NCBI GenBank assembly: GCA_035506875.1
Contig: DATJOR010000162.1
Span: forward strand, 3,956-67,955
Source: Mycobacterium sp.
GTDB taxonomy: Bacteria; Actinomycetota; Actinomycetes; Mycobacteriales; Mycobacteriaceae
Length of the DNA stretch: 64,000 nt
Direction: 5' to 3'
The notes below the pieces were generated by a model. That model was given only the letters and a program-made list of their open reading frames with translations. It had not been told where the DNA came from and did not search any database. Numbering within the stretch: the stretch's first letter is position 1; each line of letters opens with the position of its first letter. The translations under genes and the position numbers were made by a program. Shown here piece after piece: positions 32,460 to 52,366 of the stretch.

Positions 32460-32511
32460 TTCAATCCTCTCTTGGGACGCCAACTGTAAGGCTCACGAGT
32501 ACTGTACTCAG

Positions 32512-32525
32512 AACAGATATTTGGT
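32512..32525. promoter_or_regulatory. Putative operator, site 1
   Basis: AACAGATATTTGGT, close to palindrome ACCAAATATTTGGT. Confidence 0.7.
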
Positions 32526-32555: not shown

Positions 32556-33839
32556 TCACTTCCGTGCGCCGCGGTCGACGACGCCGCGTATCACGGTGTC
32601 ACGGGCGTTGACCAGCGCAGCATGCTTGCCCTCAGCCCGCACGATGTTCTCTGGCATCCACAGAATGTCCATCACACAGCGGGCCAGCATTGCCAGCGAC
32701 GGTGGATCCTCGATCCGGATGTCGCCGGACTGGATCCCCTCCGACAACAACGTCCGCAGCTGGCGCAGTCGCATGGTGAACGCCAGCCCCGGATTGGGCG
32801 TGTCGGGCGGCGACTGACGCATCCACGCGAGTTGGATCTTCCACTCGTCGGGAAACTGGTCCAAGGCGTTGATGTTGACCCAGCTGAGCGCATCAAGCTT
32901 TTCGATGGGTGTCGCGTCTGAGCGCAGCACGCTGGCGAATCCACCACCGGCTTTTATGCCGAACGACTCCATGATCGAGGCGAGCAATTCGTCTTTCGAC
33001 CCGATCAGCCGATAGACGGTCCCGGTACCCATGCCCGCCGCCGACGCGATGTCCCGGATGGTGGTGACTTCGTAGCCTTTCCTGCCGAACTCGGCTCGTG
33101 CCACCGCTCGGACGTGCGCCGCCTTGTCGTTGGCACCGGACTCACTTTCGTCGCTCCACGTCTTGATAGCCGCCTCGGCGGCCGCGAAAGCAGGGGAGCC
33201 GTCCAAATCCCGATCGGTGGGCGGTCGAGCGGCCAGACCATGCAACATGATGCGGCACAACACAAGTGCGGTCTGATCGGCCGGGGCGGTGTGCCGAACG
33301 ACATCGAGTCCGACGTGCATCATGGTCTGGCAGATGCGGTCGGCGAGCGTTGGAAGATCGATGTCGGATCTGATGTAGCCGCTCCACTTACCGGCGCGCA
33401 GTGTTTGCAGCATTGCGTCCTGGACCGCGGTGGGCGGCTTTTGAAGCAGCTCAACAAGCTCCGGATTGGCACTCGGCGCTTCATAGAACGACATCTGCAG
33501 TGCGGCGCGATGCTGCACCGCGCAACGCGCGATCGCCGCCCCCAACTCGAAGATCTCGTTGGCGGCCGAACGCGAGTCGGGCTTGTCCAATCTTTGGTGA
33601 GCGATCTCGCCGATGCGATCCAAGTCGGCGTAGTACCGATGGACCAGTTCAACGAGGATGGCTTCTTTCGATTCGAAGTGGTGATACAAGCTTCCCGGCA
33701 AAATGCCCGCGGCGTCGGCAATCTCCTGTAGCGAGGTGCGCAGCCCCGATGAGGCGATCAATGACGCCGCCGTTTGTAAGATTTCGGTCCGGCGTGTGCC
33801 GTCGTCATAGGCGCCGCCGCGGCTGTCGGTCGGCGTCAT
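32556..33839 (-). CDS. Tandem double-TetR transcriptional regulator
   Basis: Two HTHs: TSLQEIADAAGILPGSLYHHFESKE and TTIRDIASAAGMGTGTVYRLIGSKD. Confidence 0.92.
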   Translation of the reverse strand: MTPTDSRGGAYDDGTRRTEILQTAASLIASSGLRTSLQEIADAAGILPGSLYHHFESKEAILVELVHRYYADLDRIGEIAHQRLDKPDSRSAANEIFELGAAIARCAVQHRAALQMSFYEAPSANPELVELLQKPPTAVQDAMLQTLRAGKWSGYIRSDIDLPTLADRICQTMMHVGLDVVRHTAPADQTALVLCRIMLHGLAARPPTDRDLDGSPAFAAAEAAIKTWSDESESGANDKAAHVRAVARAEFGRKGYEVTTIRDIASAAGMGTGTVYRLIGSKDELLASIMESFGIKAGGGFASVLRSDATPIEKLDALSWVNINALDQFPDEWKIQLAWMRQSPPDTPNPGLAFTMRLRQLRTLLSEGIQSGDIRIEDPPSLAMLARCVMDILWMPENIVRAEGKHAALVNARDTVIRGVVDRGARK

Positions 33840-33959
33840 GTGCGGACGTCGGGCTCGGCCAGCGCGCGCAGGCGAATCGACATCGGGCAAGTCTAGGCGC
33901 GCGGAGACCCCGGCGGCTGCGGCCTGGGAAGGTTGCTGAAGCCCCACGACACCTCCGTG

Positions 33960-33973
33960 ACCCAATATTTGGT
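33960..33973. promoter_or_regulatory. Putative operator, site 2 (upstream of the TetR gene)
   Basis: ACCCAATATTTGGT. Confidence 0.7.
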
Positions 33974-34006: not shown

Positions 34007-34654
34007 CTACCACGACGGGCCGCTCCAGCGATCGACGGTGACAACCTCGTTCAGCGGACGCCTGGGCGCGGGCCTGAAGGTGTGCCCGGCGCGCAGACGG
34101 GCGACCGGCAGCAGGCAGCCTTGCGCATGACCTTCCGGGATCTCCAGCAGCTGTGCGACGGCGTCCTCGTGGTGCAGGTGCAGCGTGGTCACGCAGGTGC
34201 CGTAGCCACGGGCATGCAATGCCAGCTGAAAGTTCCACACCGCCGGGAAGATCGAGCCGTACAGAGTCGCCTGATAGAAGGATTCGTCGCCGTCGATGCG
34301 CGGCAAATATGGCTGGTAGCAGGGGATTACGAGTAAAGGCACATCCGCTAAGTTCTCGACCAGCCATTCGGTCGACGACATGAGCCGGCCCTCCGGGCTG
34401 CCCGCCGGTAGCAGATCGCCGAGCAGATGGCCGCCGACTCGGAGCAGATAGGCGGCCCGATAGACCTCCGCAATTTTTTGCCGCAGCGCGGGATCGGCGA
34501 TGACCAACCATCGCCACGACTGCTGGTTGGAGCCATTCGCTGCCTGCAAACCGATCCGAAGGCATTCGCGGATGTCATCGATGTCGACGTCGGCATCCAG
34601 GTCGAGCGATCTTCGGGCCGACCTGGTAGTGGTAAGAAGTTGCTCAATGTCCAT
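34007..34654 (-). CDS. Nitroreductase-family flavoprotein
   Basis: TTRSARR, QAANGSNQQSWRW, SIFPAVWNFQLAL. Confidence 0.92.
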   Translation of the reverse strand: MDIEQLLTTTRSARRSLDLDADVDIDDIRECLRIGLQAANGSNQQSWRWLVIADPALRQKIAEVYRAAYLLRVGGHLLGDLLPAGSPEGRLMSSTEWLVENLADVPLLVIPCYQPYLPRIDGDESFYQATLYGSIFPAVWNFQLALHARGYGTCVTTLHLHHEDAVAQLLEIPEGHAQGCLLPVARLRAGHTFRPAPRRPLNEVVTVDRWSGPSW

Positions 34655-35632: not shown

Positions 35633-36733
35633 TTAGCGCAGGACGGATTCGACGAACTGCGCGCCGACGTCGACGAGATAGCGGTCGGGTCCGCCCAGAA
35701 ACGCGTTCCAGCTGAGCAGCCGCTTGAAATACAGATGCGCGTCGTGCTCCCAGGTGTAGCCGATGCCACCGAATACCTGGATGGCGTTATCGGCAACGCC
35801 TGCCAGCCGGCCGGCGAACGCCTTGGCGCGCACCGCCGCCAGGTGCCGCTCGTCACGATCGGCGGCGTCGGCAGCCCATAAGGCGTGGATCACGCCGCTG
35901 CGTGCGAGTTCTACCGTCTCGTACATGTCGACGCAGAGGTGCTGTACTGCCTGGAACGCGCCGATCGGCTGCCCGAATTGCCGCCGAACTTTCGCGTATT
36001 CGACGGCAAGGTGCAGCACTGCCCGCGCGGCACCGAGCGCGTCCGCGGCCCACGCGATGACCACGTCATCGACGAGCGCCTCGACGGTCTCCGCCGAGGC
36101 GGTGGCCAGATGTTGTGCGGGCGTGTCGTCGAGACCGACGCGAAAGTGCTTGCGGGTCTGGTTGATTCCGCTTTGCGGCGTGATGTCGATGCCCGGCGCC
36201 GAGGTCTGGACTGCGAAGAGCCCGGTGCCGTCCTGTCCGTCGGCCAGCACGAGCAGGACGTCAGCGGCGGCGATGTCGAAGACGCCGTCGAGCGCCCCGC
36301 GCAGCACAAAACCACCGCCCTGTTGGACGGCAGCTGGGCGAGCGCCGTCCAGCGGGCCTACCGTGGCAGTGGTGGAACCGTCCGCGATACCGCTGAAAAG
36401 CGGCGCAGCCGTGGCGCTTTCCACGCCGAACCGCGTCAATGCGCGAGGCGCGGCGACCGCGGTGGACAGCCACGGTCCGGGGTGTAGCCCGGCGCCGAGC
36501 TCCTCGAGGACGATGCCGGCCTCGATCATCGTCATGCCGGCGCCGTCGTATTCCGGTGGCACCAGCAGCCCAGTCGTGCCCAACTCGACAAGCCCCCGCC
36601 AGACCGCTTCGGTGGAGCCTCTCGGATCCTCGAGCATCGGACGGACATGCTCGGCAATCGACGCCTTTTCGGCAAGAAAGCTCCGCACGGTGTCGCGCAG
36701 CGCGATCTGCTCGTCGCTCAGTTCCAGGTTCAT
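35633..36733 (-). CDS. Acyl-CoA dehydrogenase, beta-type subunit
   Basis: RRQFGQPIGAFQAVQH, QVFGGIGYTWEH. Confidence 0.9.
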   Translation of the reverse strand: MNLELSDEQIALRDTVRSFLAEKASIAEHVRPMLEDPRGSTEAVWRGLVELGTTGLLVPPEYDGAGMTMIEAGIVLEELGAGLHPGPWLSTAVAAPRALTRFGVESATAAPLFSGIADGSTTATVGPLDGARPAAVQQGGGFVLRGALDGVFDIAAADVLLVLADGQDGTGLFAVQTSAPGIDITPQSGINQTRKHFRVGLDDTPAQHLATASAETVEALVDDVVIAWAADALGAARAVLHLAVEYAKVRRQFGQPIGAFQAVQHLCVDMYETVELARSGVIHALWAADAADRDERHLAAVRAKAFAGRLAGVADNAIQVFGGIGYTWEHDAHLYFKRLLSWNAFLGGPDRYLVDVGAQFVESVLR

Positions 36734-37887
36734 GAGCGCGGCAGCCCGAGGACTCGCTGCGCGGTGATGTTCTTGTTGATCTGCGTTGTGCCGCCCGCGA
36801 TGGTGAGTGAGCGTGACGTCAAGCGATAGTCGGCCCACCGGCGGGCGCCGGGGCGCGAGCCGATCAGGTCGAATGCGAGCGCCGCGATCTCCTGCCCGAC
36901 TTCGCCCCAGATCGTCTTGGCAAGGCTTGCCGACCCGAAGGCGTCGCCGCCGTGCAGAATCGCCGAGATCGAGCGCTGGCACAGCACTTCGAGATATTTG
37001 ATGCGCAAGGCGATTTCGCCGAGGCGCCGCAATGTCGTGGCGTCGTCGAGCACGGGTCGACCATCGATGCGGATGTCTGCGAGGTCGGCGACCAGTTCCG
37101 TCAGCCGCATCTGCATCTCGGTGTACAGGCGCGCCGCGCCGGCACGCTCGTGGCTCAGCGTCGTTGTGGCGATCCGCCAGCCTCCGTTCTCCGGGCCGAG
37201 CAACGCATCCGCGGGCACCCGCACGTCGTTGAGGAAAACTTCCGCGAAGTCGGCCTCACCGCTGAGCGTGACGAGCGGTCGGACCTTGATGCCGGGCAAC
37301 GACATATCAACAATCAGGCAGGAGATGCCCTTGTGCTTCGGTGCGTCGGGGTCCGTACGCACATAAAGCTGACACCAGTCGGCAAGGTAGCCCAACGAGG
37401 TCCAGATCTTCTGGCCGTTGACCACGAAATGATCGCCGTCACGCACCGCGCGCGTGCGCAGTGACGCAAGATCCGAGCCCGCTTCGGGCTCCGACATTCC
37501 CTGGCACCAGATATCGTCGGCGCGCATCATCCGGGGGAGCAGTGTGCGCTTTTGGGCTTCGGTGCCGTATTGCATGAGCGCGGGCGCGATGTTGTTCATC
37601 CCGATCACGTTGAGCGGCATCGGCACCCGAGCGCGGGTGGTCTCCTCGGCGTACACCAGTTGCTCGAGCACCGTTGCGCCGCGGCCGCCGTACTCCTGCG
37701 GCCAGGACACCGCGGCCCACCCGGCGTCGGCCATCGTCGCGTTCCACGCTCGAAGTTTTTCGAACGCGGCGTCATCCTTGCCGCGCTGGCGGCCGGCGGC
37801 CACCACGTCGTCTGTCAGGTTCGCGGCCAACCACGCGCGCAGTTCCTTGCGGACCTGTTCCACCTCTGGTGGGTACGAGAAATCCAC
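36730..37887 (-). CDS. Acyl-CoA dehydrogenase, alpha-type subunit
   Basis: WCQGMSEPEAGSDL, NGQKIWTS, TIAGGT; ATGA overlap with its partner. Confidence 0.92.
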   Translation of the reverse strand: MDFSYPPEVEQVRKELRAWLAANLTDDVVAAGRQRGKDDAAFEKLRAWNATMADAGWAAVSWPQEYGGRGATVLEQLVYAEETTRARVPMPLNVIGMNNIAPALMQYGTEAQKRTLLPRMMRADDIWCQGMSEPEAGSDLASLRTRAVRDGDHFVVNGQKIWTSLGYLADWCQLYVRTDPDAPKHKGISCLIVDMSLPGIKVRPLVTLSGEADFAEVFLNDVRVPADALLGPENGGWRIATTTLSHERAGAARLYTEMQMRLTELVADLADIRIDGRPVLDDATTLRRLGEIALRIKYLEVLCQRSISAILHGGDAFGSASLAKTIWGEVGQEIAALAFDLIGSRPGARRWADYRLTSRSLTIAGGTTQINKNITAQRVLGLPRS

Positions 37888-37979: not shown

Positions 37980-39671
37980 GTGACAGGCGATCGGTTGCCG
38001 GCCCTGGGCATGCTCGCATCCGCGCTTGCGGGCCGACCCGTGGCGGTGGCCGAATTGCCACCGGGAGAGCCCTCGTGGACGGACGGCCGGACGATTTATG
38101 TCGACCCCTCCGCGAAGCTCGCGACGATTGCCGTACACGCGTCGATGCTCGCCGCCGGCAGCCTGCACCCTGACGTGGTCCGTCCCCTGGTCCACCACCC
38201 GCGACTGGCCAGGCGCTTTCTGGCCATCGAGGGTCACCGCGCGCTGATCGCCAACAGTGCGCTGTTACCAGGCGTTTTGGCGTCGGTGGGCGACCGTGAA
38301 ATCGCGGGCCGCACCGACTCGCCTGCCGCTTCGCTCAGCATCGCCGCCGAACGGGCGGTAATTGATGGCCCGCCGCCGGAGTTCGGCGTGATCCGCGCGG
38401 CGAAGGTATTGGCTGCGTCATCGGGCAAAGAACAGGATCAGGAAACCCCCGGCCACGTTCCGCGGGGCGGCGGTAAGAAGGAGCTTGAAGAGCTCCCGGA
38501 TTTTCAAGACGCCGACATCGACGACGCCGACGACCCGGACCTGTTCACCAGCCCGGTCGGCGGGGGCGGCTTCATCGGTAAGTGGTTGAAGAAGATGTTG
38601 TCTTCAAAAAGGAAGAAGTCGCGCAGCAGCGGCGGCGGGCCGCCCGGTGCGGACAATCCCACCCACCGCACCAACTCGGCGAACCGCGGGTTATACGCCG
38701 TCTCGTCGCTGGCCGTCACGTCGAGCGGGGACGGTGACGACGACAAAATACTCAGGGCCGCCGACGGCGTGCAGTATCCGGAATGGGACGTCACCCGCAA
38801 GAGCTACCGGCCCGCGTGGTGCACGGTGCGTGAGGTCGAGCCGAAGATCAGCGCCCACTTTTTTAAGGCGACCCCGCCACTCGACGAAGCCATCAGCGTG
38901 CGCCGCCCGCTGTCGCGACTGGGCATGGGTCTGCACCGCCGCCACCGCCAATCGCAGGGCGACGACATCGATATCGACGCGGCAGTGGAAGCCCGGGTCG
39001 AGGTATTGGCCGGGTCGGTGCCCGACGAGGCGGTCTACCTCGACAGCCTGCGGCGCCGACGTGACCTGTCGGTGCTGCTGCTTCTTGATGTGTCGGGCTC
39101 GGCAGCGGAGCCCGGGACGGTGGGCCGCACCGTGCACGAACAACAGCTTGCGGCCGTCGCCAGCCTGACCGTCGCGCTGCACGACCTAGGCGATCGAGTT
39201 GCGTTGTACGCCTACTACTCTCAGGGCCGGGGCGCGGTCAGCATGGTGCCCGTCAAACGATTTAACGACCACCTCGACTCGCAAGTCATGAAGCGGCTGA
39301 ACAGCCTCCAGCCCGGCGCATTCTCCCGCCTCGGAGCGGCCATCCGCCACGGCTCGGCGGTTCTGGAGGCACGCGGAGGCACATCGCGGCGGCTGTTGGT
39401 GGTGTTGTCCGACGGACTCGCGTATGACCACGGGTATGAGCGGGCCTACGGAGCCGCCGACGCGCGCCGGGCGTTGACCGAGGCCCGCCGCCGGGGTACA
39501 GGTTGTGTGGGCCTGACTATCGGCGCGGGAACCGACGTGCAATCCCTTCGCCGAGTATTCGGCAGCGCGGCGCATGCCACGATCGCACGCCCTGATCAAC
39601 TCGCCGGTGTGATCGGACCACTGTTCCAATCGGCACTGCGCTCGGCGGAAGTTCGCCGGAGGACGTTATGA
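37980..39671 (+). CDS. NorD/CbbO-like VWA-domain protein
   Basis: YPEWD, GDDIDIDAAVE, MIDAS DVSGS, RLGAAIRH, LSDG; RBS GGAGG before GTG 37980. Confidence 0.9.
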   Translation: MTGDRLPALGMLASALAGRPVAVAELPPGEPSWTDGRTIYVDPSAKLATIAVHASMLAAGSLHPDVVRPLVHHPRLARRFLAIEGHRALIANSALLPGVLASVGDREIAGRTDSPAASLSIAAERAVIDGPPPEFGVIRAAKVLAASSGKEQDQETPGHVPRGGGKKELEELPDFQDADIDDADDPDLFTSPVGGGGFIGKWLKKMLSSKRKKSRSSGGGPPGADNPTHRTNSANRGLYAVSSLAVTSSGDGDDDKILRAADGVQYPEWDVTRKSYRPAWCTVREVEPKISAHFFKATPPLDEAISVRRPLSRLGMGLHRRHRQSQGDDIDIDAAVEARVEVLAGSVPDEAVYLDSLRRRRDLSVLLLLDVSGSAAEPGTVGRTVHEQQLAAVASLTVALHDLGDRVALYAYYSQGRGAVSMVPVKRFNDHLDSQVMKRLNSLQPGAFSRLGAAIRHGSAVLEARGGTSRRLLVVLSDGLAYDHGYERAYGAADARRALTEARRRGTGCVGLTIGAGTDVQSLRRVFGSAAHATIARPDQLAGVIGPLFQSALRSAEVRRRTL

Positions 39672-39805
39672 CGGGCGCGCTGATGCCATGTCCCAGAACG
39701 CAGTTGGCACAGCACCGCGTAACACCCGCTCGGGTGGCACTTGAAACAAACATCTGTTCCGATTAGGCTCCAGGCACCGCAGTGCGGCGGGGCAGAAGGG
39801 AAGCT

Positions 39806-40648
39806 ATGGCTAACGAGTCCGGGCTCGCCAGTCGAAACGGCGCTACCACCGAGGCGGAGAGCATGCGACCCTATTACACGACGATCGGCAGCGAAGACGC
39901 CGTGTTCAAGGCGGCATACCGCCAGGGTCTGGCAGTCGTTCTGAAAGGGCCGACGGGCTGTGGCAAGACCCGCTTCGTCGAGGCGATGGCCTACGACCTC
40001 GGTCGGCCGCTGATCACCGTCGCCTGCCATGACGACCTCACCACCGCGGACCTGGTCGGCCGCTACCTGCTGAAGGGCGACGAGACCGTCTGGGTGGACG
40101 GTCCGTTGACGCGGGCGGTGCGCGAGGGAGCGATCTGCTATCTCGACGAGGTGGTGGAAGCCCGACAGGACACCACCGTCGTGCTGCATCCTCTCGCTGA
40201 CCACCGTCGCCAGCTGCCGATTGAGCGTCTCGGTGTCACGCTGGACGCGGCGCCCGGATTCGCCCTGGTGGTGTCCTACAACCCCGGCTATCAAAGCGTG
40301 CTCAAGGACTTGAAGGATTCGACCCGCCAGCGCATGGTCGCCATCGAATTCGGTTTTCCCGCAGCCGATGTCGAAGAGGGGATCGTTGCACACGAGGCGG
40401 GCGTGGACAGTGCCACCGCGGCCGAGCTCGTGCGGGTGGGGCAGGCCATCCGGCGGCTGGAGACCGGGGGATTGCGTGAGGTTGCGTCAACCCGGGTGCT
40501 GATCGCGGCGGGCCGGCTTGTCGCGGAGGGTCTGACCATGCCCGACGCGGCGAGGGCCGCGATCGCTGGTCCGCTCACTGACGACGTGGCGGTGAGCAAG
40601 GCGCTGGGCGAGATGATTCAGATCTATCTGGGCCGAGCAGAGGTCTGA
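39806..40648 (+). CDS. CbbQ/NirQ/NorQ-type MoxR AAA+ ATPase
   Basis: [51 protein letters not shown]. Confidence 0.95.
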
Positions 40649-40683
40649 TGATTGACGCTGCATACCACCACAGCTAGGGTCTG

Positions 40684-40697
40684 AACAAATATTAGGT
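40684..40697. promoter_or_regulatory. Putative operator, site 4
   Basis: AACAAATATTAGGT just after TTGACG..TAGGGT promoter-like hexamers. Confidence 0.65.
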
Positions 40698-40736
40698 TTG
40701 CGGATGGGCGCGTGAATTTGCCACCCGGGAGGTCAG

Positions 40737-41855
40737 ATGTCCTACGAGAGCAGCGCAGAGCCGATCAAGGTCGGCTACCTGATGGACTTCACGCTCCCGC
40801 CCGGGTTTCCCGAGGAGCTGAAGGCGTCCTTCACCCGATGCTTTGACCTCGTCTTCGAAGAGGCGCGCGAGCAGGGCCTGATGGATCGCGCCGTGCAGAT
40901 GGTCTACCGCGAGGTCGAGGGGCTGCCCAAGGGCTCGGTGAAGTCGGTGATCGACGCGTTCGGCGAACTCGTCGACGAAGGTTGCCTGGTGGTGTTCGGG
41001 CCGCACATCACCGACAATTGTGTGCCGACGCGGGAGGCGATCGAAGAGCGATTCAAGGTCCCGGCCATCGCCGTCACCGGTACCGACGATTGGCTCGGCG
41101 AGTGGACATTCGCCTTTCCGCAGGGGTCGATGACCGACGAACCGATCTTCATCGCCGACCTGGTCGCCAAGCGAGGCCTGAACAGTATCGGGGTTCTCGT
41201 GGAGCAGAACCTGATCGGTGATAGCTACCTGAAGAACTTACGAAGCGCATGCGCGCGCAAGGGAATTCGCATCGTCGCTGAGGCGGCGATAGCCCAAACC
41301 GCGCAGGACATCAATGAAGCGGTGCGCACCCTGCATGATGCGAAGGCGGAAGCGATCGTGCATCTGGGTTTCGGTTTCGGGATCGTGTTCATCAACCCGG
41401 CGCTCGAAGCGGTTGACTGGGACCCGCCGCGGTTCACCACCACGGCTTTCCAGAACGCCTGGGTGAACCCGATCATGTGGAACGCGTTCCTGGGCTGGGT
41501 TGGAGTCGACCAGTACGACGAGGGCAACGCGATCGGTCAAGATTTCCTGGACCGCTACGCGAAGAGATACAACGGCAGCCGCCCGGAATACTGCGTGCCG
41601 GTGGTGAACCGCGACGTCGCCGCGACACTGGTACGCGCCTTCACCGACTCACACCCGCTGAGCCCGCGCGGCGTCAAGGAGGCGTTGGAACGCGTCAAGA
41701 TGATGCCCGCTGCATCCGGTGCACCCGGCACCCGGGTGTCGTTCGGTAAGTGGACGCGGCGGGCCTGGATGGGCGCCGGTTATCTGGTGGCCCGGACTCT
41801 CGATGCCGACGGTGTCAACTCGAAATTGGTCGACCGCTTCGGAGAGGAAGGCTGA
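40737..41855 (+). CDS. Type I periplasmic-binding-fold (LivJ/AmiC-like) protein without signal peptide
   Basis: PIKVGYL..LVVFGP..IGVLVEQNLIG; no hydrophobic N-terminus or lipobox. Confidence 0.8.
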   Translation: MSYESSAEPIKVGYLMDFTLPPGFPEELKASFTRCFDLVFEEAREQGLMDRAVQMVYREVEGLPKGSVKSVIDAFGELVDEGCLVVFGPHITDNCVPTREAIEERFKVPAIAVTGTDDWLGEWTFAFPQGSMTDEPIFIADLVAKRGLNSIGVLVEQNLIGDSYLKNLRSACARKGIRIVAEAAIAQTAQDINEAVRTLHDAKAEAIVHLGFGFGIVFINPALEAVDWDPPRFTTTAFQNAWVNPIMWNAFLGWVGVDQYDEGNAIGQDFLDRYAKRYNGSRPEYCVPVVNRDVAATLVRAFTDSHPLSPRGVKEALERVKMMPAASGAPGTRVSFGKWTRRAWMGAGYLVARTLDADGVNSKLVDRFGEEG

Positions 41856-41859
41856 CTCG

Positions 41860-43002
41860 ATGTCTACGGAACAGTCCACACCAATCCAGGCTGACGACAA
41901 GCCCATCCGGCCGCAAGGTAGCGAAAAGCGCGGCTGGGGCGGCTGGATCGCCGGTGCCGCGCTGGCGGCCTTCGCGCTGTTTTTCATCGCGAACTGTCGG
42001 GTCGCGCTCGATCCGCGCGTCGCCAACCCGAATGTGCACGGCCGGCCGCGGCCGGTGAGGTTCCTGTTCGGGTTGGACTACATCACTTTCCTGCACATCT
42101 CCACGTGCATCATGCTGCTGGTGCTGCTGGTGGTGTTCATCCGCGGCTGGCGCCGCAATCCGGGCAGCCCGGTGATGCTGATGTTCCTGTGCACCACGCT
42201 GATCGTGTGGCAGGACCCGATCATGAACTGGTCTCCGTTCGCGGTCTACAACCCCGACCTCATCCACTGGCCGGAGTCGTGGCCGCTGGTGTCGCTGTCG
42301 CCGACCGTCGAGCCGTTCGTCGTATTCGGCTATGTCACTTTCTATTTCGGCCCCTACTTCCCGGCGGTCTGGATACTGCGCAAACTGCAGGCCAAGTATG
42401 GGCCCGAGCATTTCGTGTCGCGACACCCGCTGGTCAGCCTGGGTGGCCTGGTCCTGGTGATCGGTTTCGTCTTCGACGCCTGGCTGGAGAACCAGCTCAT
42501 TCACATGGGCATGTACATCTACTCGCAGGTCATTCCGTGGGGTTCGGTGTTCACCGGCACCACGTTCCAGTTCCCGCTGATCTGGGAGTCGTTCGCGGTC
42601 ACGTTCGTGATGATTCCCGCGGCGATCCTCTGCTACCGCGACGACACCGGGAAGTCGGTGGCCGAGAAGCTCGCCGCGAAAGCCAAGATCTTCCCGCGCC
42701 GCCCGGTGCTGGGCACGTTCCTGGTGATGTTCGCCATCATCAATGTGTCCTACTTCGCGTACGGCGCGTGGTTCTGGACCATCAAGGTGAGTCACGCCGC
42801 GACTTCGGTCGCCTGCCCGTGGCCGTATCCGGAAGCCAAAGTCTATGACCCGCAGAGCTATTACGAGAAGTCGGGTGCGCAAGGCCCGTTCTCGGTCGGC
42901 ATCTGGTCGACGTGGGCGAGTGGCGAGCCGAACGGACGGCCGCATGTCGAGCCGCCGGCGCCGGGTCAAGGCCGTTGTGAACCCGCGAGATCGAATGGGT
43001 GA
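41860..43002 (+). CDS. AveC (spirocyclase)-family membrane protein
   Basis: Multi-TM; WQDPIMNW..YNP, YIYSQ, FQFPLIWE. Confidence 0.75.
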   Translation: MSTEQSTPIQADDKPIRPQGSEKRGWGGWIAGAALAAFALFFIANCRVALDPRVANPNVHGRPRPVRFLFGLDYITFLHISTCIMLLVLLVVFIRGWRRNPGSPVMLMFLCTTLIVWQDPIMNWSPFAVYNPDLIHWPESWPLVSLSPTVEPFVVFGYVTFYFGPYFPAVWILRKLQAKYGPEHFVSRHPLVSLGGLVLVIGFVFDAWLENQLIHMGMYIYSQVIPWGSVFTGTTFQFPLIWESFAVTFVMIPAAILCYRDDTGKSVAEKLAAKAKIFPRRPVLGTFLVMFAIINVSYFAYGAWFWTIKVSHAATSVACPWPYPEAKVYDPQSYYEKSGAQGPFSVGIWSTWASGEPNGRPHVEPPAPGQGRCEPARSNG

Positions 43003-43984
43003 ACCGCGCACCGTAGTCATCACCGGTGCGTCTCGCGGACTGGGGTTCGCATCGACCGTGCGCCTGTATCGCGAGGGGTGGCGGGTGCTCGCGGCCATGC
43101 GCACGCCCGAGCGAGGGATGGCGCTGCTGCGCGAGGCGACGGGTGCACGAGAAGACGACGACCGGCTGATCGGCGTCCAACTCGATCTATTGGATTTGGC
43201 CTCGGTCGCAGCTGCGGCCAAGGCCATCGAGGAAGCGGTTGGCACCCCGTATGCGCTGGTTCACAACGCGGGTATTTCTGCGGCCGGGATGCTCGAAGAG
43301 ACCGATATGCAGTTGTGGCAGAACATGTTGGCGACGTCGGTCTTGGGCCCGGTGGCACTGACCAAGGCGCTGTTGCCGTCCATGCGTTCGGCGGGTGAGG
43401 GCCGCATCGTCCTGGTATCCAGTGCGGCCGGTGTGCGCGGCCAGCCCGCCACTGCGCCCTACTCGGCGGCCAAAGGCGCGCTGGAGCGTTGGGGCGAGTC
43501 GTTGGCGAATGAGATCGCGCCGTTCGGGCTTGGTATCACTATCTTGGTCGCCGGCACTTACGACACCGAAATCATCACCGATGCCGGCACCACCGATGAT
43601 CGCAATTTCGGCGGCCCGTACGCGCGGCTGCACAACACGATGAACACTCGCGGACGCTTCGCGGTCAGTTTCGCCAGGCCGGCCGAACGATTCACCGACG
43701 GATTGGTCAAGGCGCTGAACGACAGCGGGCCGTTTCGGCGTCGAGGGGTGGGGCCGGATGCATCAATGCTCTTGGCGTTCAACAGGATCCTGCCGACTTC
43801 TGGTATGCACCACATGTCGCGGATCGTGCTGGGCATACCCCGGCAGGGATCGATGCGCGACGGGGCCTGGCCGTTGACAACCGGCCAACGAGCGATGGTG
43901 TTGGTCGCAAAAGTCCTTCCGCAACCGGTGTTGCAACGGTTGGCAGCGTTGGCGGCGAAGCGCCGAAAAGGAAATGGGGAGTAG
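42995..43984 (+). CDS. SDR oxidoreductase (17-beta-HSD-like)
   Basis: TGASRGLG, HNAG, YSAAK. Confidence 0.88.
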   Translation: MGEPRTVVITGASRGLGFASTVRLYREGWRVLAAMRTPERGMALLREATGAREDDDRLIGVQLDLLDLASVAAAAKAIEEAVGTPYALVHNAGISAAGMLEETDMQLWQNMLATSVLGPVALTKALLPSMRSAGEGRIVLVSSAAGVRGQPATAPYSAAKGALERWGESLANEIAPFGLGITILVAGTYDTEIITDAGTTDDRNFGGPYARLHNTMNTRGRFAVSFARPAERFTDGLVKALNDSGPFRRRGVGPDASMLLAFNRILPTSGMHHMSRIVLGIPRQGSMRDGAWPLTTGQRAMVLVAKVLPQPVLQRLAALAAKRRKGNGE

Positions 43985-43986
43985 CT

Positions 43987-45204
43987 ATGGAGCAGCTTTT
44001 TGACGACCTGGAGGATTTCGGCTCGTTCGACGACGCGATCTCCGGTGACGTGCGTGACCCGTACACCGAGCTGGCGCGGTTGCGCCGCGAGGAACCGGTC
44101 CAGCGACTCGAGACGTCGGGCGCGCTGCCGCACGAGGAATCACTGCCGATGTTCATCGTGTATCGCCATGAGGATGTCCAGCAGATGCTGCGCGACAACG
44201 AGACGTTTTCGTCGTCGGCCGTCATCGCAGCTTTCGGTCCTGTGTTGGGTGAAGGCGTGATGCTGGGCATGGACGAGCCGATCCACGGCCGGCTGCGCTC
44301 ATTGGTGTCAAAGGCGTTCTCGCAGAAGTCATTGGCGCGCTGGCAGGACCAATTAGTCGGCCGCGTGGCGAACAGCCTGATCGACAACTTCGCACCCAAC
44401 GGCAAGGCGGACTTGGTCAAGGAGTTCACCTTCGACTATCCGAGCCAGATCATTGCGGGCCTATTGGGCTTGCCGGAAAAGGACTACCCGCAGTTCCAGC
44501 GGTGGTCGATTTCGCTGCTGAGCTGGTTGATGAACCCGGAACGCGGGCTCGCGGCGTCGGCCGCCCTCTGCGACTATTTCGCTCCGATTCTCGAGGCCCG
44601 CCGCGCAGCGCCGAAGGACGACCTGATCAGCGCGCTTGGTGCCGCTGAGATCGACGGGGAGAAGCTCGCCGACGAGGAGATCTTCTCGTTCCTGCGGCTG
44701 CTGTTGCCCGCCGGCGTGGAGACGACCTACCGGGCGTTGGGCAGCCTGCTGTTCGGGCTGTTGTCCGATCCGCCGCAATTGGAGGCGATCCGTGCCGACC
44801 GGTCGCTGCTGCCGCAGGCCATTGAGGAGGGCGTGCGGTGGGAGCCCCCGCTATTGACCATCACCCGGGTGGCGACCCGCGACACCGAGCTGGGTGGGGT
44901 GTCGATCCCGGCCGGGGCGACGGTGATGCCGATGCTGGGTTCGGCCAACCGGCAAGAAGATCGCTACCCCGACCCGGACACGTTCGACATTCACCGGCAG
45001 GCCAAGGCCAATCTGGGCTGGGGACACGGCGTGCACGTGTGCCTCGGCATGCATCTCGCACGGCTCGAAATGCGCACCGCCATCAACCTTCTACTCGACC
45101 GGCTGCCCAATCTTCGGCTGGACCCCGACGGGGACGACCCGCACATCCGCGGGCAAGTCTTCCGGTCACCGACGTCGCTACCAGTGCTCTTCGACGCCCA
45201 GTAG
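43987..45204 (+). CDS. Cytochrome P450
   Basis: AGVETT, EGVR (ExxR), WGHGVHVCLG haem motif. Confidence 0.96.
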   Translation: MEQLFDDLEDFGSFDDAISGDVRDPYTELARLRREEPVQRLETSGALPHEESLPMFIVYRHEDVQQMLRDNETFSSSAVIAAFGPVLGEGVMLGMDEPIHGRLRSLVSKAFSQKSLARWQDQLVGRVANSLIDNFAPNGKADLVKEFTFDYPSQIIAGLLGLPEKDYPQFQRWSISLLSWLMNPERGLAASAALCDYFAPILEARRAAPKDDLISALGAAEIDGEKLADEEIFSFLRLLLPAGVETTYRALGSLLFGLLSDPPQLEAIRADRSLLPQAIEEGVRWEPPLLTITRVATRDTELGGVSIPAGATVMPMLGSANRQEDRYPDPDTFDIHRQAKANLGWGHGVHVCLGMHLARLEMRTAINLLLDRLPNLRLDPDGDDPHIRGQVFRSPTSLPVLFDAQ

Positions 45205-45294
45205 CCAACCCCGCGACGGTTGCATCTTGTCAATCGGCTAGTTTCCAGTAAGGCTCTCCGTAGGGGTCTACCGAGTCAAAAGAGAGTGACAGAC

Positions 45295-46779
45295 ATGACT
45301 GAGGCTGTAAAGGTCCGCTTCGAGCCGAAGATGATGATCGACGGCAAGCTCGTCGACGGCCAGGCCGGGACGTTCACCAACATCAATCCGGCGACCGAGG
45401 AATCGATCGGCGAAGTCGCCGACGCGTCGAAAGAGGACATGCACCGGGCCATCGACGCTGCTCGGCGGGCCTTCGACGAGACCGACTGGTCGACCAACCG
45501 TGAGCTGCGCAAGCGTTGTCTCTTGCAACTGCACGACGCGATCGAGGAGGAGAAGGAAGAGCTTCGGGAGGAGCTCATCCTCGAGGTCGGCTCCCCGCGG
45601 GCGATCACCTTCGGCCCCCAATTGGACGCCCCGCTGCAGGATGGCCTGAAGTACCCGGCCCGGCTGATCGACGAGTACGCCTGGGAAACCGACCTCGGCG
45701 ACCGGGTCATCAGCCTCACCGGTGCGAACACCACCATCAAGGTCTGGCGGGAGCCGGTGGGTGTGGTCGGCGCGATCGTGCCGTGGAACTTCCCGTTCGA
45801 GGTCACCATCAACAAGCTCGGCCAAGCACTGGGAACTGGCAATACGGTCGTCCTCAAGCCCGCGCCCAACACCCCGTTCAACGCGACCCGGCTGGGTCGG
45901 CTGATCGTCGAGAAGACCGACATTCCCGCCGGGGTCGTCAACGTGGTCACCGCTTCGGATCACTTTGTCGGCGAGGAGCTCACACTGTCGCCGAAGGTCG
46001 ACCTGATCTCGTTCACCGGCTCCACGGTGGTCGGCAAGCGGATCATGGAAAAGGGTGCCGCCACGATGAAGCGGCTGTTCCTGGAGCTTGGTGGCAAGTC
46101 GGCCACCATTGTCTTGGAGGACGCCGACTTCGGGCTGGCGTGCGCGATCGGTATCGCGCCGTGCATGCACGCCGGGCAGGGCTGCGCGAACCCGACGCGC
46201 ATGCTGCTGCCGCGGTCGCGCTACGACGAGGGGGTGGCGATCCTCAAGGGCATCTACGAGAACGTCACGTGCGGCGACCCGCAGGATCCGGGAACCCTGT
46301 GCGGCCCGGTGATCTCGCAGCGACAGTTCGACCGCGTAACGAGCTATATCAAGAAGGGCGTCGAGGAAGGCGCCACCGCGCTGGTCGGCGGGCCCGGCGC
46401 GCAGACCGGTTTCGACAAGGGATATTACGTCCGGCCAACGCTTTTCACCGATGTCGACAACAAGATGACGATCGCTCAGGAGGAGATCTTCGGCCCGGTG
46501 CTGTCCGTCATCCCGTTCGACGACGAGGAGGACGCTATTCGGATCGCCAATGACAGCGTCTATGGGTTGGCCGGCAACGTGATGTCGGGTTCGTTGGAGC
46601 ATTCGCTGGCCGTGGCCCGCCGGATCAAGGCCGGCTTCATCGGCGTCAACGGTGGCGCGCCGTACGGCGCCGACACACCCTTCGGCGGATACAAAGACAG
46701 CGGGGTGGGACGCCAGAACGGTATCGCCGGATTCGACCAGTACACCGAGATCAAGTCCGTCGGGTATCCCGCCGGGTAA
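45295..46779 (+). CDS. Aldehyde dehydrogenase
   Basis: PWNFP, FTGST, LELGGKS, GQGC, EEIFGPV. Confidence 0.96.
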   Translation: MTEAVKVRFEPKMMIDGKLVDGQAGTFTNINPATEESIGEVADASKEDMHRAIDAARRAFDETDWSTNRELRKRCLLQLHDAIEEEKEELREELILEVGSPRAITFGPQLDAPLQDGLKYPARLIDEYAWETDLGDRVISLTGANTTIKVWREPVGVVGAIVPWNFPFEVTINKLGQALGTGNTVVLKPAPNTPFNATRLGRLIVEKTDIPAGVVNVVTASDHFVGEELTLSPKVDLISFTGSTVVGKRIMEKGAATMKRLFLELGGKSATIVLEDADFGLACAIGIAPCMHAGQGCANPTRMLLPRSRYDEGVAILKGIYENVTCGDPQDPGTLCGPVISQRQFDRVTSYIKKGVEEGATALVGGPGAQTGFDKGYYVRPTLFTDVDNKMTIAQEEIFGPVLSVIPFDDEEDAIRIANDSVYGLAGNVMSGSLEHSLAVARRIKAGFIGVNGGAPYGADTPFGGYKDSGVGRQNGIAGFDQYTEIKSVGYPAG

Positions 46780-46830: not shown

Positions 46831-48339
46831 GTGACCGAAGCCGGAGCAGCGTCGCGGACGACCGGCCGCAGGATGGCGATTGACTATGCGATCGGCCTCG
46901 CGTGCGGCCACCTGCTCGGTACTGCCGATGCCGCCGCGATCGTCATACCGCTGCACGGTCAGTTCGCCAGGAATGCGCAGGCATATTTCGGTCCGCGAAG
47001 CCTGATCCTCGCGGCCGTCATCGTCGTTCTGGGCACCACCGCTGTTGCCGTCGGCGGCATCGTGAACCTCGTCCCGATCCTGCGGTGGTATGTCCGCAAG
47101 CAGCAACCGGACCCCGATCAACGACGAGCGGCCATGCGCCTGCTCGGCCGCCAGTCGGCAATCCTGGCGGCGGTGTGGGCGGTCAGCGGCCTGAGTTATC
47201 TCGTGCTCAACCTTGACGGATTTGCGGTTCTTTGGATCCCGACTGTGTTGGCCGTGGTCTTCGGCGGAAGCGCGGCGGCAAGCCTGGGTCTTCTGCTCAC
47301 GCAGCGGTCAATTCGCCCGATTCTGCTTGCCGCCACGCAGGGCTCGGAAGGCCTTGTGGTGGCGCCTCGCGTGCTTACCCGCCTTGTGGGCATGTGGCTG
47401 TTGGGTAGTGGACTGCCATGCTTGGCGATCGCGGGCTTGGTTTTAGCTCGCTCGAACGGCTGGATCATCCAGAAGGCCGGGTCGGTCGAGATGCCCATCC
47501 TGGTGGTGACGCTTGTCGCGATACTCATCGGACTCCCGGTGATGATTATGACCTCGCGGTCGATATCGGATCCCATTGGCGAGGTCGTTGATGCGATGGC
47601 AGAGGTCGAGCGAGGCCGAATCAATACCTACGTTGGTGTCTATGAGCGTTCTGAGATCGGCCGCCTGCAAAGCGGATTCAACCGTATGGTGGCTGGAATC
47701 GCCGAACGCGACCGGCTGCGCGACCTTTTCGGTCGCCACGTCGGGGCGGATGTGGCCAGACGCGCCATCGAAGAGGGCACGTCACTGTCCGGGGATGTAC
47801 GAGAGGCGGCAATCCTTTTCATCGACCTGGTCGGCTCGACGACGTTGGCGGCCAGCCGGCCGCCACAAGAGGTCGCGGAAGTACTCAACGACTTTTTTCG
47901 AATTGTGGTCGATGCCGTCGACGAGCGGAACGGTCTGATCAACAAGTTCCAAGGAGACGCCGCGCTCGCTGTCTTCGGGGCACCGCTGCCCGCTGACGAC
48001 GCCGCATCGGCGGCGCTGGCTACCGCGCGTAGCCTGCGCAGCCAACTGCGCCGGCTCCCCGTCGTCGACTTCGGAATAGGCGTGTCTGCGGGGCCGGTCT
48101 TCGCCGGAAACATCGGCGCCGAAAACCGCTACGAATACACCGTTGTCGGCGACGCGGTCAATGAGGCCGCGCGGCTGGCTGATTTCGCAAAGGCTTTGGA
48201 CCGCCGGATCGTTTGTTCAGCTGCTGCGATCGACCGTGCCGACGCGGCTGAGCGTCAACACTGGGTCGCACATGGTGACACCGTGCTGCGGGGCCGCTCC
48301 GAGTCCACCCGTATCTGGACACCCGCCGCGGACAGCTGA
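46831..48339 (+). CDS. Membrane HAMP-class III adenylate cyclase
   Basis: TM region, HAMP (EIGRLQSGFNRM), FIDLVGST, KFQGD, TVVGDAVNEAARL. Confidence 0.93.
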   Translation: MTEAGAASRTTGRRMAIDYAIGLACGHLLGTADAAAIVIPLHGQFARNAQAYFGPRSLILAAVIVVLGTTAVAVGGIVNLVPILRWYVRKQQPDPDQRRAAMRLLGRQSAILAAVWAVSGLSYLVLNLDGFAVLWIPTVLAVVFGGSAAASLGLLLTQRSIRPILLAATQGSEGLVVAPRVLTRLVGMWLLGSGLPCLAIAGLVLARSNGWIIQKAGSVEMPILVVTLVAILIGLPVMIMTSRSISDPIGEVVDAMAEVERGRINTYVGVYERSEIGRLQSGFNRMVAGIAERDRLRDLFGRHVGADVARRAIEEGTSLSGDVREAAILFIDLVGSTTLAASRPPQEVAEVLNDFFRIVVDAVDERNGLINKFQGDAALAVFGAPLPADDAASAALATARSLRSQLRRLPVVDFGIGVSAGPVFAGNIGAENRYEYTVVGDAVNEAARLADFAKALDRRIVCSAAAIDRADAAERQHWVAHGDTVLRGRSESTRIWTPAADS

Positions 48340-48430
48340 GGGCATTGGGAGCCAAGTCGACCGCAACTCATGCCGTATGGCTTACAGTTGTCGGGCCCGG
48401 GCCTGCGCGGACGAAGGAGTGAGCATCGCC

Positions 48431-49510
48431 ATGTCAATTCCCCGATACCCGGGCGACGTCACCCGCGAGTGGCTCTCGGCGGTGCTGAGCAGCGGCGGCA
48501 CCCCGGCGTCGGTCTCCGACGTGGACGTGGCCGCCATCGGTACCGGCCAGACCGGGGCGACGTATCGGGTGTCGGTCGCGTATGCGACGGAAGTGGGTGG
48601 CTTGCCGACCACATTCGTGATCAAACTGCCTGCCACCGACGACACGGTGCGGGAGCGAGTGACGATCGGCTACCGCAGTGAATGCGCCTTCTACAACGCC
48701 GTTGCCGACCGGGTAGGGGTGCCGACGCCGGAGTGCTTCTACTGCGAGATCAGCGACGACGCCCTTGATTACGCCCTGCTGCTCGCCGATCAAGCACCCG
48801 CTGAGCAGGGCGATCAGCTCGCCGGCTGCGGCGAGCAGCAGGCGCGGCTGGCCGTCACGGCACTAGCCGGACTGCACGGGCCCAGCTGGTGTGATCCGGT
48901 GTGGCTGGACTTCCCTGGGATCGCCTTCGCACGACCCGACGCAGCGTCGGCCAAAGGGCTCGGCGACGTCGCGCGGATGAGCGCCGACATCACCCTGGAA
49001 AAGCTCGGCGATCGCATGAGCGCGGCCGATCGAGAGACTTTCACCGCCGCAATGAATTTGGTGACCCCATGGCTGCTTGCCGAGCAAGATCGATTCGCCC
49101 TGCTGCACGGCGACTACCGCCTCGACAACATGCTGTTCTACCCCGACGCCACCCGGGTCACGGTGGTCGACTGGCAGACGCTCGGGGTGGGGCTGCCCGC
49201 AAGGGATCTGGCCTACTTCACTGCGACCAGCCTCAAGCCGGAACTGCGCTCAGGAATCGAGCAGGACCTTGTCGACGCGTACCACCGGGCTCTGTCCGGC
49301 TACGGTGTCACCGGCTACGACCGCGAAATCTGTTGGCGTGATTACCGCCTCGGAATGCCGCAGGCGCTGCTGATTTCGGCATTGGGATTTGCGTTCGCCA
49401 CCGCCACCGACCGTGGCGACGACATGGTGCTCACCATGTTGGCCCGTGGCTGCCAGGCAATCCGCGACCTTGGCACCTTGGAGCTCATCGGCGAGCACAC
49501 TGCGCTATAG
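48431..49510 (+). CDS. APH/EcKinase-like phosphotransferase
   Basis: IGTGQ, LHGDYRLDN, VVDWQ, DLAYF. Confidence 0.88.
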   Translation: MSIPRYPGDVTREWLSAVLSSGGTPASVSDVDVAAIGTGQTGATYRVSVAYATEVGGLPTTFVIKLPATDDTVRERVTIGYRSECAFYNAVADRVGVPTPECFYCEISDDALDYALLLADQAPAEQGDQLAGCGEQQARLAVTALAGLHGPSWCDPVWLDFPGIAFARPDAASAKGLGDVARMSADITLEKLGDRMSAADRETFTAAMNLVTPWLLAEQDRFALLHGDYRLDNMLFYPDATRVTVVDWQTLGVGLPARDLAYFTATSLKPELRSGIEQDLVDAYHRALSGYGVTGYDREICWRDYRLGMPQALLISALGFAFATATDRGDDMVLTMLARGCQAIRDLGTLELIGEHTAL

Positions 49511-51625: not shown

Positions 51626-52366
51626 GTGTCGTTGTTGACCGATCAGACCGCGGTTATTACCGGCGGTGCTCAGGGACTGGGTTTCGCCATAGCGCAGCTG
51701 TTCGTGGCCGAGGGGGCGCGGGTCGTGCTCGGTGACGTGAATCTCGAGGCAACGGAGTCGGCGGCGAAACAGCTCGGCGGCGCGGACATCGCCGCGGCGG
51801 TGCGCTGCGACGTGACTTCCGGGGAGGATGTCGACGCGCTGGTCGCGGCCGCGGTCGACCGGTTCGGCGGGCTGGACATCATGGTCAACAACGCCGGGAT
51901 CACCCGGGACGCGACGATGCGCAAGATGACCGAGGAGCAGTTCGATCAGGTGATCGCCGTACACCTGAAAGGAACCTGGAACGGGTTGCGGAAAGCCGCA
52001 GCGATCATGCGGGAGAACAAACGCGGCACGATCGTGAACATGTCGTCGATCTCCGGGAAGGTCGGCATGGTCGGCCAGACCAACTATTCGGCGGCAAAGG
52101 CCGGCATCGTGGGAATGACCAAGGCGGCTTCCAAGGAACTCGCGCATCTCGGTGTGCGAGTCAACGCGATCCAGCCTGGGCTGATCAGGTCGGCGATGAC
52201 GGAGGCCATGCCGCAACGGATCTGGGACGAGAAGCTGGCTGAGATACCGATGGGACGGGCCGGCGAGCCAGAAGAGGTCGCCAAGGTTGCGCTGTTCCTC
52301 GCGAGCGATCTGTCGTCATACATGACGGGAACCGTTCTCGAGGTGACCGGCGGGAGACACCTGTGA
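51626..52366 (+). CDS. fabG: 3-oxoacyl reductase (FabG2-like SDR)
   Basis: [22 protein letters not shown]. Confidence 0.88.

Follow-up and report, generated by a model that had tools for sequence, protein, structure and literature searches.

Background

Which protein does a NorQ/NorD-type pair serve when neither of the clients known for such pairs is encoded beside it? The question is raised by a 64,000-nucleotide stretch of DNA from Mycobacterium sp. (contig DATJOR010000162.1 of assembly GCA_035506875.1; the whole stretch is hereafter called the window), in which genes for a NorD-like von Willebrand factor A (VWA) adaptor and a NorQ/CbbQ-type AAA+ ATPase head a run of seven genes that also encodes a ligand-binding protein, an AveC-like membrane protein, a short-chain dehydrogenase (SDR), a cytochrome P450 and an aldehyde dehydrogenase (ALDH). 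To our knowledge, no members of this AAA+/VWA subfamily other than NorQ/NorD and CbbQ/CbbO have been characterised, and each of these two has one known client. Our comparison of the locus across genomes points to the AveC-like protein, which is fairly probably a dedicated partner or client of the pair and remodelled by it.

The source assembly, assigned to Mycobacterium in the broad sense that GTDB gives the genus, comprises 4.8 Mb in 438 contigs and is 83% complete. A first-pass annotation, made from the sequence alone, had described the seven genes as intact and co-directional, had read the adaptor's MIDAS (an adhesion site dependent on a metal ion) as DVSGS, and had noted that the window holds no gene for Rubisco, nitric-oxide reductase (NOR) or nitrite reductase; all of this was confirmed. 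It had further proposed that the client is a protein other than Rubisco or the cytochrome c-dependent NOR (cNOR), naming the AveC-like protein, the P450 and the binding protein as candidates. The evidence given below supports that proposal and narrows it to the AveC-like protein.

Results and discussion

The gene cluster and its AAA+/VWA pair

Seven intact, co-directional genes occupy positions 37980–46779 of the window:

37980–39671, + strand: NorD-like VWA adaptor, with a clade-specific N-terminal domain, an acidic/Gly-rich linker and a C-terminal VWA domain (Pfam VWA_2)
39782–40648, + strand: NorQ/CbbQ-type MoxR AAA+ ATPase (Pfam AAA_5 and CbbQ_C)
40737–41855, + strand: ligand-binding protein of the Peripla_BP_6 family, signal-less (Pfam)
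41860–43002, + strand: AveC-like (PF17198/DUF5135) seven-helix membrane protein (Pfam AveC_like)
42995–43984, + strand: SDR (Pfam)
43987–45204, + strand: cytochrome P450, class I bacterial type (Pfam)
45220–46779, + strand: ALDH (Pfam)

We take all seven to be real genes because their frame-specific G+C content at third codon positions is 0.74–0.85. The VWA gene starts with the GTG at 37980, with GGAGG 7 nt upstream; the AveC-like gene starts with the ATG at 41860, 5 bp past the stop of the binding-protein gene, and the ATG of the SDR gene overlaps the AveC-like stop as ATGGGTGA (42995–43002), an arrangement of translational coupling.

The ATPase scores far above the Pfam cut-offs for both AAA_5 (115.7 bits) and CbbQ_C (93.7 bits), and it is close to solved members of the group, namely two NorQ structures (9qhd, E 7e-93; 9qh4, 3e-91) and CbbQ (5c3c, 3e-90). 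It carries a Walker A motif (GPTGCGKT), a Walker B motif (YLDE) and the helix-2-insert motif GRYLL, all of them invariant in 19 members of the clade described below. In NorQ the corresponding GRxLL motif, as defined in PMC13036017, grips the finger of the VWA adaptor. Cysteines C60 and C82 are spaced like the pair that forms the P-loop disulphide of NorQ, a bond that is inhibitory there (PMC13036017). Judged from these sequence features, the protein is a full member of the NorQ/CbbQ/GvpN (CGN) subfamily of MoxR AAA+ ATPases. We also considered a role in anti-phage defence and rejected it: PADLOC matched the ATPase at P-loop level only and did not match any of the three further proteins tried.

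The adaptor, a protein of 563 aa whose orthologues are named 'nitric oxide reductase activation protein NorD' in databases, is a composite. Residues 259–549 align continuously with residues 349–640 of the 646 of solved NorD (9qhd_G, E 2e-38), a region that takes in the finger and the C-terminal tail. The MIDAS reads LLLLDVSGS, with DVSGS at 370–374, and 21 sequences share D370, S372, S374 and D478 without exception. The N-terminal half is conserved inside the clade, and a profile made from the first 250 aa retrieved no solved NorD chain at E up to 1. In NorD itself, the N-terminal half and the linker have been proposed to engage the target (PMC13036017). In the linker of the window's adaptor, encoded at 38470–38760 (residues ~165–260), an acidic run precedes a segment that the type-1 orthologues defined below have conserved; the consensus of that segment in the type-1 alignment, DPDLFxSPVGGGGxIGKWLKKMLSS, resembles an amphipathic helix and could rest on the membrane surface.

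A clade of NorQ/NorD-type pairs linked to AveC-like genes

We assembled 80 loci from a scan of species genomes with a CbbQ alignment, together with loci collected earlier, and marked each by its neighbours. Loci that include a binding-protein gene are called type 1 (n=26), and those with the arrangement AveC-NorQ-NorD and no binding-protein gene type 2 (n=31). In a maximum-likelihood tree of 115 CbbQ/NorQ proteins the window's ATPase belongs to a clade with an SH-aLRT (Shimodaira–Hasegawa-like approximate likelihood-ratio test) support of 99 and a stem of 0.63. An AveC-like gene lies within 10 kb in 58 of the 61 members of this clade, and at least one of the three exceptions (L048) is close to a contig end. 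Outside it fall all six NorB-linked NorQ proteins and 40 other CbbQ/NorQ proteins from Thiobacillus, Pyrinomonadaceae and similar taxa. The AveC-linked clade is spread over Mycobacterium, Nocardia, Acidimicrobiales and other Actinomycetota, and also occurs on contigs of 51–59% GC whose metagenome-assembled genomes are labelled Alpha- or Gammaproteobacteria, labels that we take as given.

All nine orthologous loci examined within the genus keep the order VWA-NorQ-binding protein-AveC, and the SDR and ALDH genes are variable. The congeners hold two further classes of NorQ paralogues. One of these, at ~65% identity, is of type 2; the AveC, NorQ and NorD genes of such loci overlap or abut, with a median gap of 17 bp. 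The companions of the two locus types differ: an SDR gene lies beside AveC in 22/26 type-1 and 2/31 type-2 loci, a P450 gene within 8 kb in 25/26 and 7/31, and an ALDH gene in 20/26 and 4/31. Since a minimal AveC-NorQ-NorD form exists, the P450, ALDH, SDR and binding protein are dispensable companions; of the pair's companions in the cluster, only the AveC-like gene is found with nearly every member of the clade. The comparison of gene neighbourhoods that the first-pass annotation had suggested therefore singles out the AveC-like gene as the constant companion of the pair, and it is this constancy across many genomes that makes the AveC-like protein the likely client.

An evenly drawn sample of 301 Actinomycetes genomes gives the same association from another side. 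AveC_like was matched in 25 of these genomes and CbbQ_C in 18; in 17 genomes a CbbQ_C match is intact, and each of the 17 also has AveC_like. Of the intact CbbQ_C matches, 24 of the 36 lie within 10 kb of an AveC_like match.

Two observations on related loci may be recorded here. A type-2 AveC-NorQ-NorD operon of one congener is adjoined by two genes for oxygenases of the MpaB/Lcp type (L016:12156–14977, - strand), a family that includes rubber- and prenyl-chain-cleaving enzymes. There is also a third NorQ/NorD-like clade, ~49% identical and with an SH-aLRT support of 99 (L020:6493–11628; also L017, L023, L026, L028, L031 and L047), whose pairs have as neighbours a 233-aa Trp-rich membrane protein, present once or twice, along with a 146-aa single-helix protein and genes for TetR regulators and P450s. 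The 233-aa protein had no match in Pfam, NCBIfam or the PDB, and we rejected it as a relative of the AveC-like proteins after a profile-profile comparison gave a probability of 0.5%, that is, no relationship. Possibly, this third clade represents one more orphan AAA+/VWA system whose partner is a membrane protein.

Rubisco and nitric-oxide reductase as improbable clients

The most conventional explanation of the pair is that it is an ordinary NorQ/NorD or CbbQ/CbbO serving a NOR or Rubisco encoded elsewhere, possibly on a missing contig. It draws on the database name NorD of the adaptor's orthologues, on the form-I Rubisco found in two of five cluster-bearing congeners and on the NOR-like gene of the quinol-dependent kind (qNOR) found in one. 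In the window's own assembly, the one CbbQ_C match is the NorQ gene of the window itself; there is no match to RuBisCO_large, and no COX1 match of NorB grade, the single COX1 match (377 bits, on a truncated contig) being of CtaD grade. Cytochrom_D1 gave one marginal, partial match of 25.8 bits. Because this assembly is incomplete, we checked five near-complete congeners (99–100%) that carry the cluster. Rubisco is absent from three of them (G023, G018 and G008), and the two that have it carry it 55 kb and >1 Mb away from any CbbQ gene; a NOR-like gene is absent from four, and the qNOR-like gene of the fifth is on another contig. Form-I-grade genes for the Rubisco large subunit (~456 bits), with no CbbQ gene beside them, are located at G011:C1:2155186–2156109 and G024:C1:3289935–3290858.

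We found neither the norCB linkage that marks a NorQ proper nor the cbbLS or carboxysome linkage that marks a CbbQ proper. The first-pass annotation had held that a phylogenetic grouping of the pair with a norCB- or cbbLS-linked pair would speak against an unconventional client; no such grouping was observed, and NorB-linked NorQ lies outside the well-supported AveC-linked clade. Together with the congeners that maintain the cluster with no Rubisco or no NOR-like gene, the distance of Rubisco where it is present, and an adaptor N-terminal domain whose profile retrieved no NorD chain, this largely refutes a conventional client, which we regard as very improbable.

A shared operator and a double TetR regulator

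A 14-bp palindrome close to ACCAAATATTTGGT has six matches in the window at up to three mismatches, against 0.25 expected, and none of 100 shuffles reached six. The sites, and the regulator gene with which they are associated, are as follows:

32512–32525: operator-like palindrome AACAGATATTTGGT, 20 bp upstream of an SDR gene (31617–32492, - strand)
33960–33973: operator-like palindrome ACCCAATATTTGGT, where the double-TetR gene starts; putative autoregulation site with a conserved counterpart in L024 and L021
37942–37955: operator-like palindrome within the divergent promoter region of 92 bp that separates an acyl-CoA dehydrogenase gene (- strand) from the VWA gene (+ strand)
40684–40697: operator-like palindrome AACAAATATTAGGT, in the 88-bp gap from the NorQ gene to the binding-protein gene
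27735–27748 and 52079–52092: weaker copies with 2 and 3 mismatches, inside a GGDEF gene and an SDR gene, respectively; probably chance matches
32556–33965, - strand: double (tandem) TetR-family regulator of 469 aa, with two TetR-type NCBIfam matches per protein

Upstream of the VWA gene in five other loci (L021, L024, L027, L033 and L034) the palindrome is identical to the 37942 site, and the palindrome of the gap between NorQ and the binding protein recurs in the same gap of L015, L018, L024, L027 and L029. The motif is absent from the paralogous AveC-NorQ-NorD loci. Its presence before both the VWA-NorQ and the binding protein/AveC units, conserved in the orthologues, argues for one TetR-type regulon: a single TetR-type repressor appears to control both transcription units through the shared 14-bp operator. 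The double TetR, an orthologue of which stands beside the cluster in 23 of the 26 type-1 loci, is likely to be this repressor. That the pair and the AveC unit are under one control supports a shared function.

Two neighbouring acyl-CoA dehydrogenases, a nitroreductase and a further two SDRs belong to the same regulon, enzymes that fit the oxidation of a bulky hydrophobic acid without identifying it. The acyl-CoA dehydrogenase genes (35633–37887, - strand) and the nitroreductase gene (34007–34654) lie between the double-TetR and VWA genes; this block occupies that place only in the closest relatives (L027 and L029), and elsewhere a divergent SDR gene abuts the VWA gene. On the other side of the cluster, the ALDH gene is followed by genes for a HAMP-adenylate cyclase and an APH/EcKL-type kinase (46831–49510), which are not conserved by the cluster in other genomes; the start of the kinase is uncertain because the longest open reading frames of the two genes overlap by ~200 bp. 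A Pfam scan of the neighbouring genes (~27.5–52.4 kb of the window) found no polyketide synthase.

The AveC-like membrane protein

The window's AveC-like protein matches the AveC_like profile along its whole length (positions 1–234 of 234) with 221 bits against a cut-off of 26.6, and is ~20–25% identical to most of its family, for which a profile search recovered 1496 representative clusters at E up to 0.001. A structural model built from 146 diverse homologues (pLDDT, the predicted local distance difference test, 86.5; pTM, the predicted template-modelling score, 0.85) has seven transmembrane helices. Among these homologues only E210 is invariant, and at least 90% of them retain D119, P152, Y158, P190, P239, D262 and G264. 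A search of the membrane core for a metal site turned up neither a His nor a Cys that is conserved among the 146 homologues, so that a site like FeB is not evident. The loops carry three Lys/Arg residues at 100–103, four at 181–189 and seven at 259–281, and none at 123–156 and 216–239; from this distribution the positive-inside rule would place the N-terminus inside and the C-terminus outside. D261 and D262, then in a cytoplasmic loop, could be a ligand for the MIDAS of the adaptor. A prediction of the complex of the NorD-like protein (563 aa) with residues 20–320 of the AveC-like protein scored 0.10 against a mark of 0.32, a value that speaks neither for nor against binding.

Two independent models of the protein were compared with solved structures. 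Foldseek found nothing in the PDB at E up to 0.001 for either. An exhaustive structural aligner placed MvINS, the mycobacterial Insig homologue (PDB 4xu4), at the top for both, with Z of 6.2 and 6.0 and a root-mean-square deviation of ~4 Å over 135–136 residues, below the Z of 8–13 needed for helical bundles; Dispatched, NCR1, NPC1L1, HpnN and MmpL followed at Z 3.8–4.8, in the noise range for such bundles. On the sequence side, a shallow profile hinted at Insig with E 0.1–0.25 and a deep profile gave no match, and the Pfam INSIG model matched none of 41 relatives and was equally without a match in the control genomes. The Insig link is a weak structural lead from models, unsupported by the deep profile.

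A second, shorter AveC-like gene of ~300 aa, which we call type B, is present in the same genome at C423:2906–3808 (+ strand), on a contig of 8.7 kb with no NorQ/NorD or binding-protein gene. Type B genes lie 7–10 kb downstream of the cluster in several congeners, and in L051 one adjoins a binding-protein gene without the pair.

The binding protein and the oxidative enzymes

The Peripla_BP_6 protein begins MSYESSAEPIKVG and has no signal peptide, which makes it cytoplasmic. It is 63–91% identical across genera, and always adjoins a type-1 AveC-like gene; the PDB contains no relative of it by sequence. The AveC-NorQ-NorD loci of another actinomycete family (L043:10001–11545 and L040:4424–5257, both - strand) hold a 514-aa Peripla_BP_6 protein with an N-terminal extension and a LivF-like ABC ATPase, so that the Peripla_BP_6 fold recurs with AveC-like genes in transporter guise.

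The best solved relatives of the P450 are an ancestral reconstruction of CYP125 (5e-67) and macrolide hydroxylases. The nearest NCBIfam model for the ALDH is TIGR04284 (aldehy_Rv0768), at 653 bits, under its cut-off of 775. Public collections contain single proteins of 537–647 aa that combine AveC_like with adh_short (P0009, P0035 and P0098). Genuine fusions and artefacts of gene calling are both conceivable; in the former case they would link the SDR with the chemistry of AveC.

Comparison with characterised systems

The system closest to the window's pair is NorQ/NorD. The two share both protein families (the AAA+ protein at E 7e-93 and the VWA half of the adaptor at 2e-38), the Walker A/B, GRxLL and MIDAS motifs, the P-loop cysteine pair, and the lengths of the finger region and C-terminal tail. 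In both, the client, putative here, is an integral membrane protein reached from the cytoplasm. Unlike NorQ/NorD, the window's pair has no norCB nearby and no NOR detected in its genome, belongs to a separate clade, has its genes in the order D then Q, and has an adaptor for which no similarity to NorD could be detected over the N-terminal 250 aa. Its putative client also has no His-rich metal site, so that Fe insertion is not implied.

CbbO, at ~770 aa, is larger than the window's adaptor. The CbbQ/CbbO Rubisco activase of Acidithiobacillus and Halothiobacillus (PDB 5c3c, 6l1q) likewise combines a hexameric MoxR ATPase of the CbbQ type (E 3e-90) with a VWA/MIDAS adaptor, and offers a precedent for a role in repair or unblocking instead of metal insertion. 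Its client, in contrast, is soluble and recognised through an acidic surface residue and the C-terminal tail, and here Rubisco is absent or unlinked. RavA/ViaA, CobS/CobT-CobN and BchI/BchD-BchH also set an AAA+ ring with a VWA/MIDAS adaptor on a dedicated target, in the case of RavA/ViaA membrane respiratory complexes (PMC10585395, PMC3893208), but they belong to other AAA+ subfamilies, and the chelatases among them have a tetrapyrrole-binding third subunit with no counterpart in the window's cluster.

Among relatives of the putative client, AveC and MeiC are spirocyclase-dehydratases of avermectin and meilingmycin biosynthesis in Streptomyces; they are polytopic, have no solved structure and are hard to express heterologously (PMC13303154). 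They share Pfam PF17198 with the window's protein, but AveC is encoded in a polyketide cluster and the window's AveC-like protein in a TetR regulon of the catabolic type. We know of no NorQ/NorD pair that accompanies AveC in its polyketide cluster, and two genomes of 9–10 Mb in family f64 that have AveC-like genes gave no CbbQ_C match. The binding protein, for its part, resembles the LivJ-fold sensors of the AmiC type in having the type-I binding-protein fold (Peripla_BP_6) in the cytoplasm with no signal peptide; it differs in having no AmiR-type partner, no match to solved structures and a constant AveC-like pairing.

Proposed mechanism and alternatives

The assignment of the AveC-like protein to the pair rests on family membership, intact motifs, co-location throughout the clade, a shared operator and the absence of Rubisco/NOR linkage. 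The physical contact of adaptor and AveC-like protein, the outcome of remodelling and the substrate are set out here as we infer them. A hexamer of NorQ with one NorD-like adaptor would form the machine; the adaptor would use its MIDAS and its clade-specific N-terminal domain to dock on the AveC-like protein from the cytoplasmic side, by analogy with NorQD on membrane-bound NorB. ATP hydrolysis in the NorQ ring would then twist the adaptor, and the AveC-like protein would be remodelled to an active, loaded or unblocked state. The cluster as a whole would constitute an inducible pathway that oxidises a hydrophobic compound, with hydroxylation by the P450 followed by conversion to a carboxylate by the SDR and ALDH. 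A cyclic lipid, terpenoid or steroid, is a suggestion made solely from the types of enzyme in the cluster.

Several observations weigh against the AveC-like protein as a dedicated client. A binding protein/AveC module without NorQ/NorD occurs in L052 (genome G106, 96% complete) and L051 (G273), and neither genome has a CbbQ_C match. In the class sample ~30 of the 61 AveC-like genes have no CbbQ within 10 kb. As roughly half of these genes are unlinked, the pair is not generally required by the family and is a helper for some lineages. As far as the family's sequences indicate, the analogy with metal insertion finds no visible acceptor site. D261 and D262 are equally conserved in AveC-like proteins without the pair, and are for that reason not a specific mark of docking. 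Finally, gene neighbourhood alone leaves room for an unlinked client.

A different division of labour is conceivable, in which the AveC-like protein and the pair together form an ATP-driven membrane device that extracts or translocates a hydrophobic substrate and delivers it via the binding protein to the P450. The tightness of the AveC-NorQ-NorD operon hints that use is stoichiometric and not occasional; Peripla_BP_6 proteins recur with AveC-like genes, either cytoplasmic or as the 514-aa form with a LivF-like ABC ATPase; and the best, if weak, fold matches are membrane proteins that handle lipids or sterols (MvINS at Z 6.0, the others at 3.8–4.8). Yet every one of these fold matches is under the level of trust for helical bundles, AveC, the family's founding member, acts as an enzyme (a spirocyclase/dehydratase; PMC13303154), the known NorQ/NorD and CbbQ/CbbO pairs are maturation or repair factors and not transporter subunits, and many AveC-like genes occur without the pair. 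We consider such a device unlikely. The same doubt attaches to its most specific form, an improbable scheme in which the AAA+/VWA motor would cyclically drive a possibly Insig-like seven-helix protein that captures, flips or cyclises an isoprenoid- or sterol-like molecule and passes it to the binding protein for oxidation by the P450. The client might instead be soluble, the binding protein, the P450 or another enzyme, with the AveC-like gene a mere co-inherited neighbour. The binding-protein gene does lie between NorQ and AveC in type-1 loci and encodes the most conserved protein of the cluster, P450 genes are near nearly all of these loci, and the third NorQ/NorD clade is near P450 genes too. 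The type-2 loci, however, keep AveC abutting NorQ-NorD with no binding protein and seldom with a P450, the binding protein and AveC also occur together where NorQ/NorD is absent, and the equal regulation of two units separated by an operator favours no single soluble enzyme; a soluble client seems to us quite unlikely. The AveC-like protein as client remains the explanation that we prefer.

Implications

A search of the library of papers open to us found no published link between AveC-like proteins and a NorQ/NorD-type machine. The machine itself is of a known kind; what is new is its probable client family, which is uncharacterised, and an adaptor domain specific to the clade. If the proposal is true, the AveC-like protein would be a third class of client for the NorQ/NorD-CbbQ/CbbO subfamily, and a client apparently without a metal site would put to the test whether such machines serve to insert metals or to remodel proteins in general. 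The AveC-like family, with its ~1500 sequence clusters, no solved structure and members reportedly hard to express, includes the enzyme that sets avermectin product ratios, and a dedicated helper for some of these proteins suggests a practical way to make and study them. The shared operator and the TetR repressor, in turn, provide a handle for finding the compound that induces the pathway.

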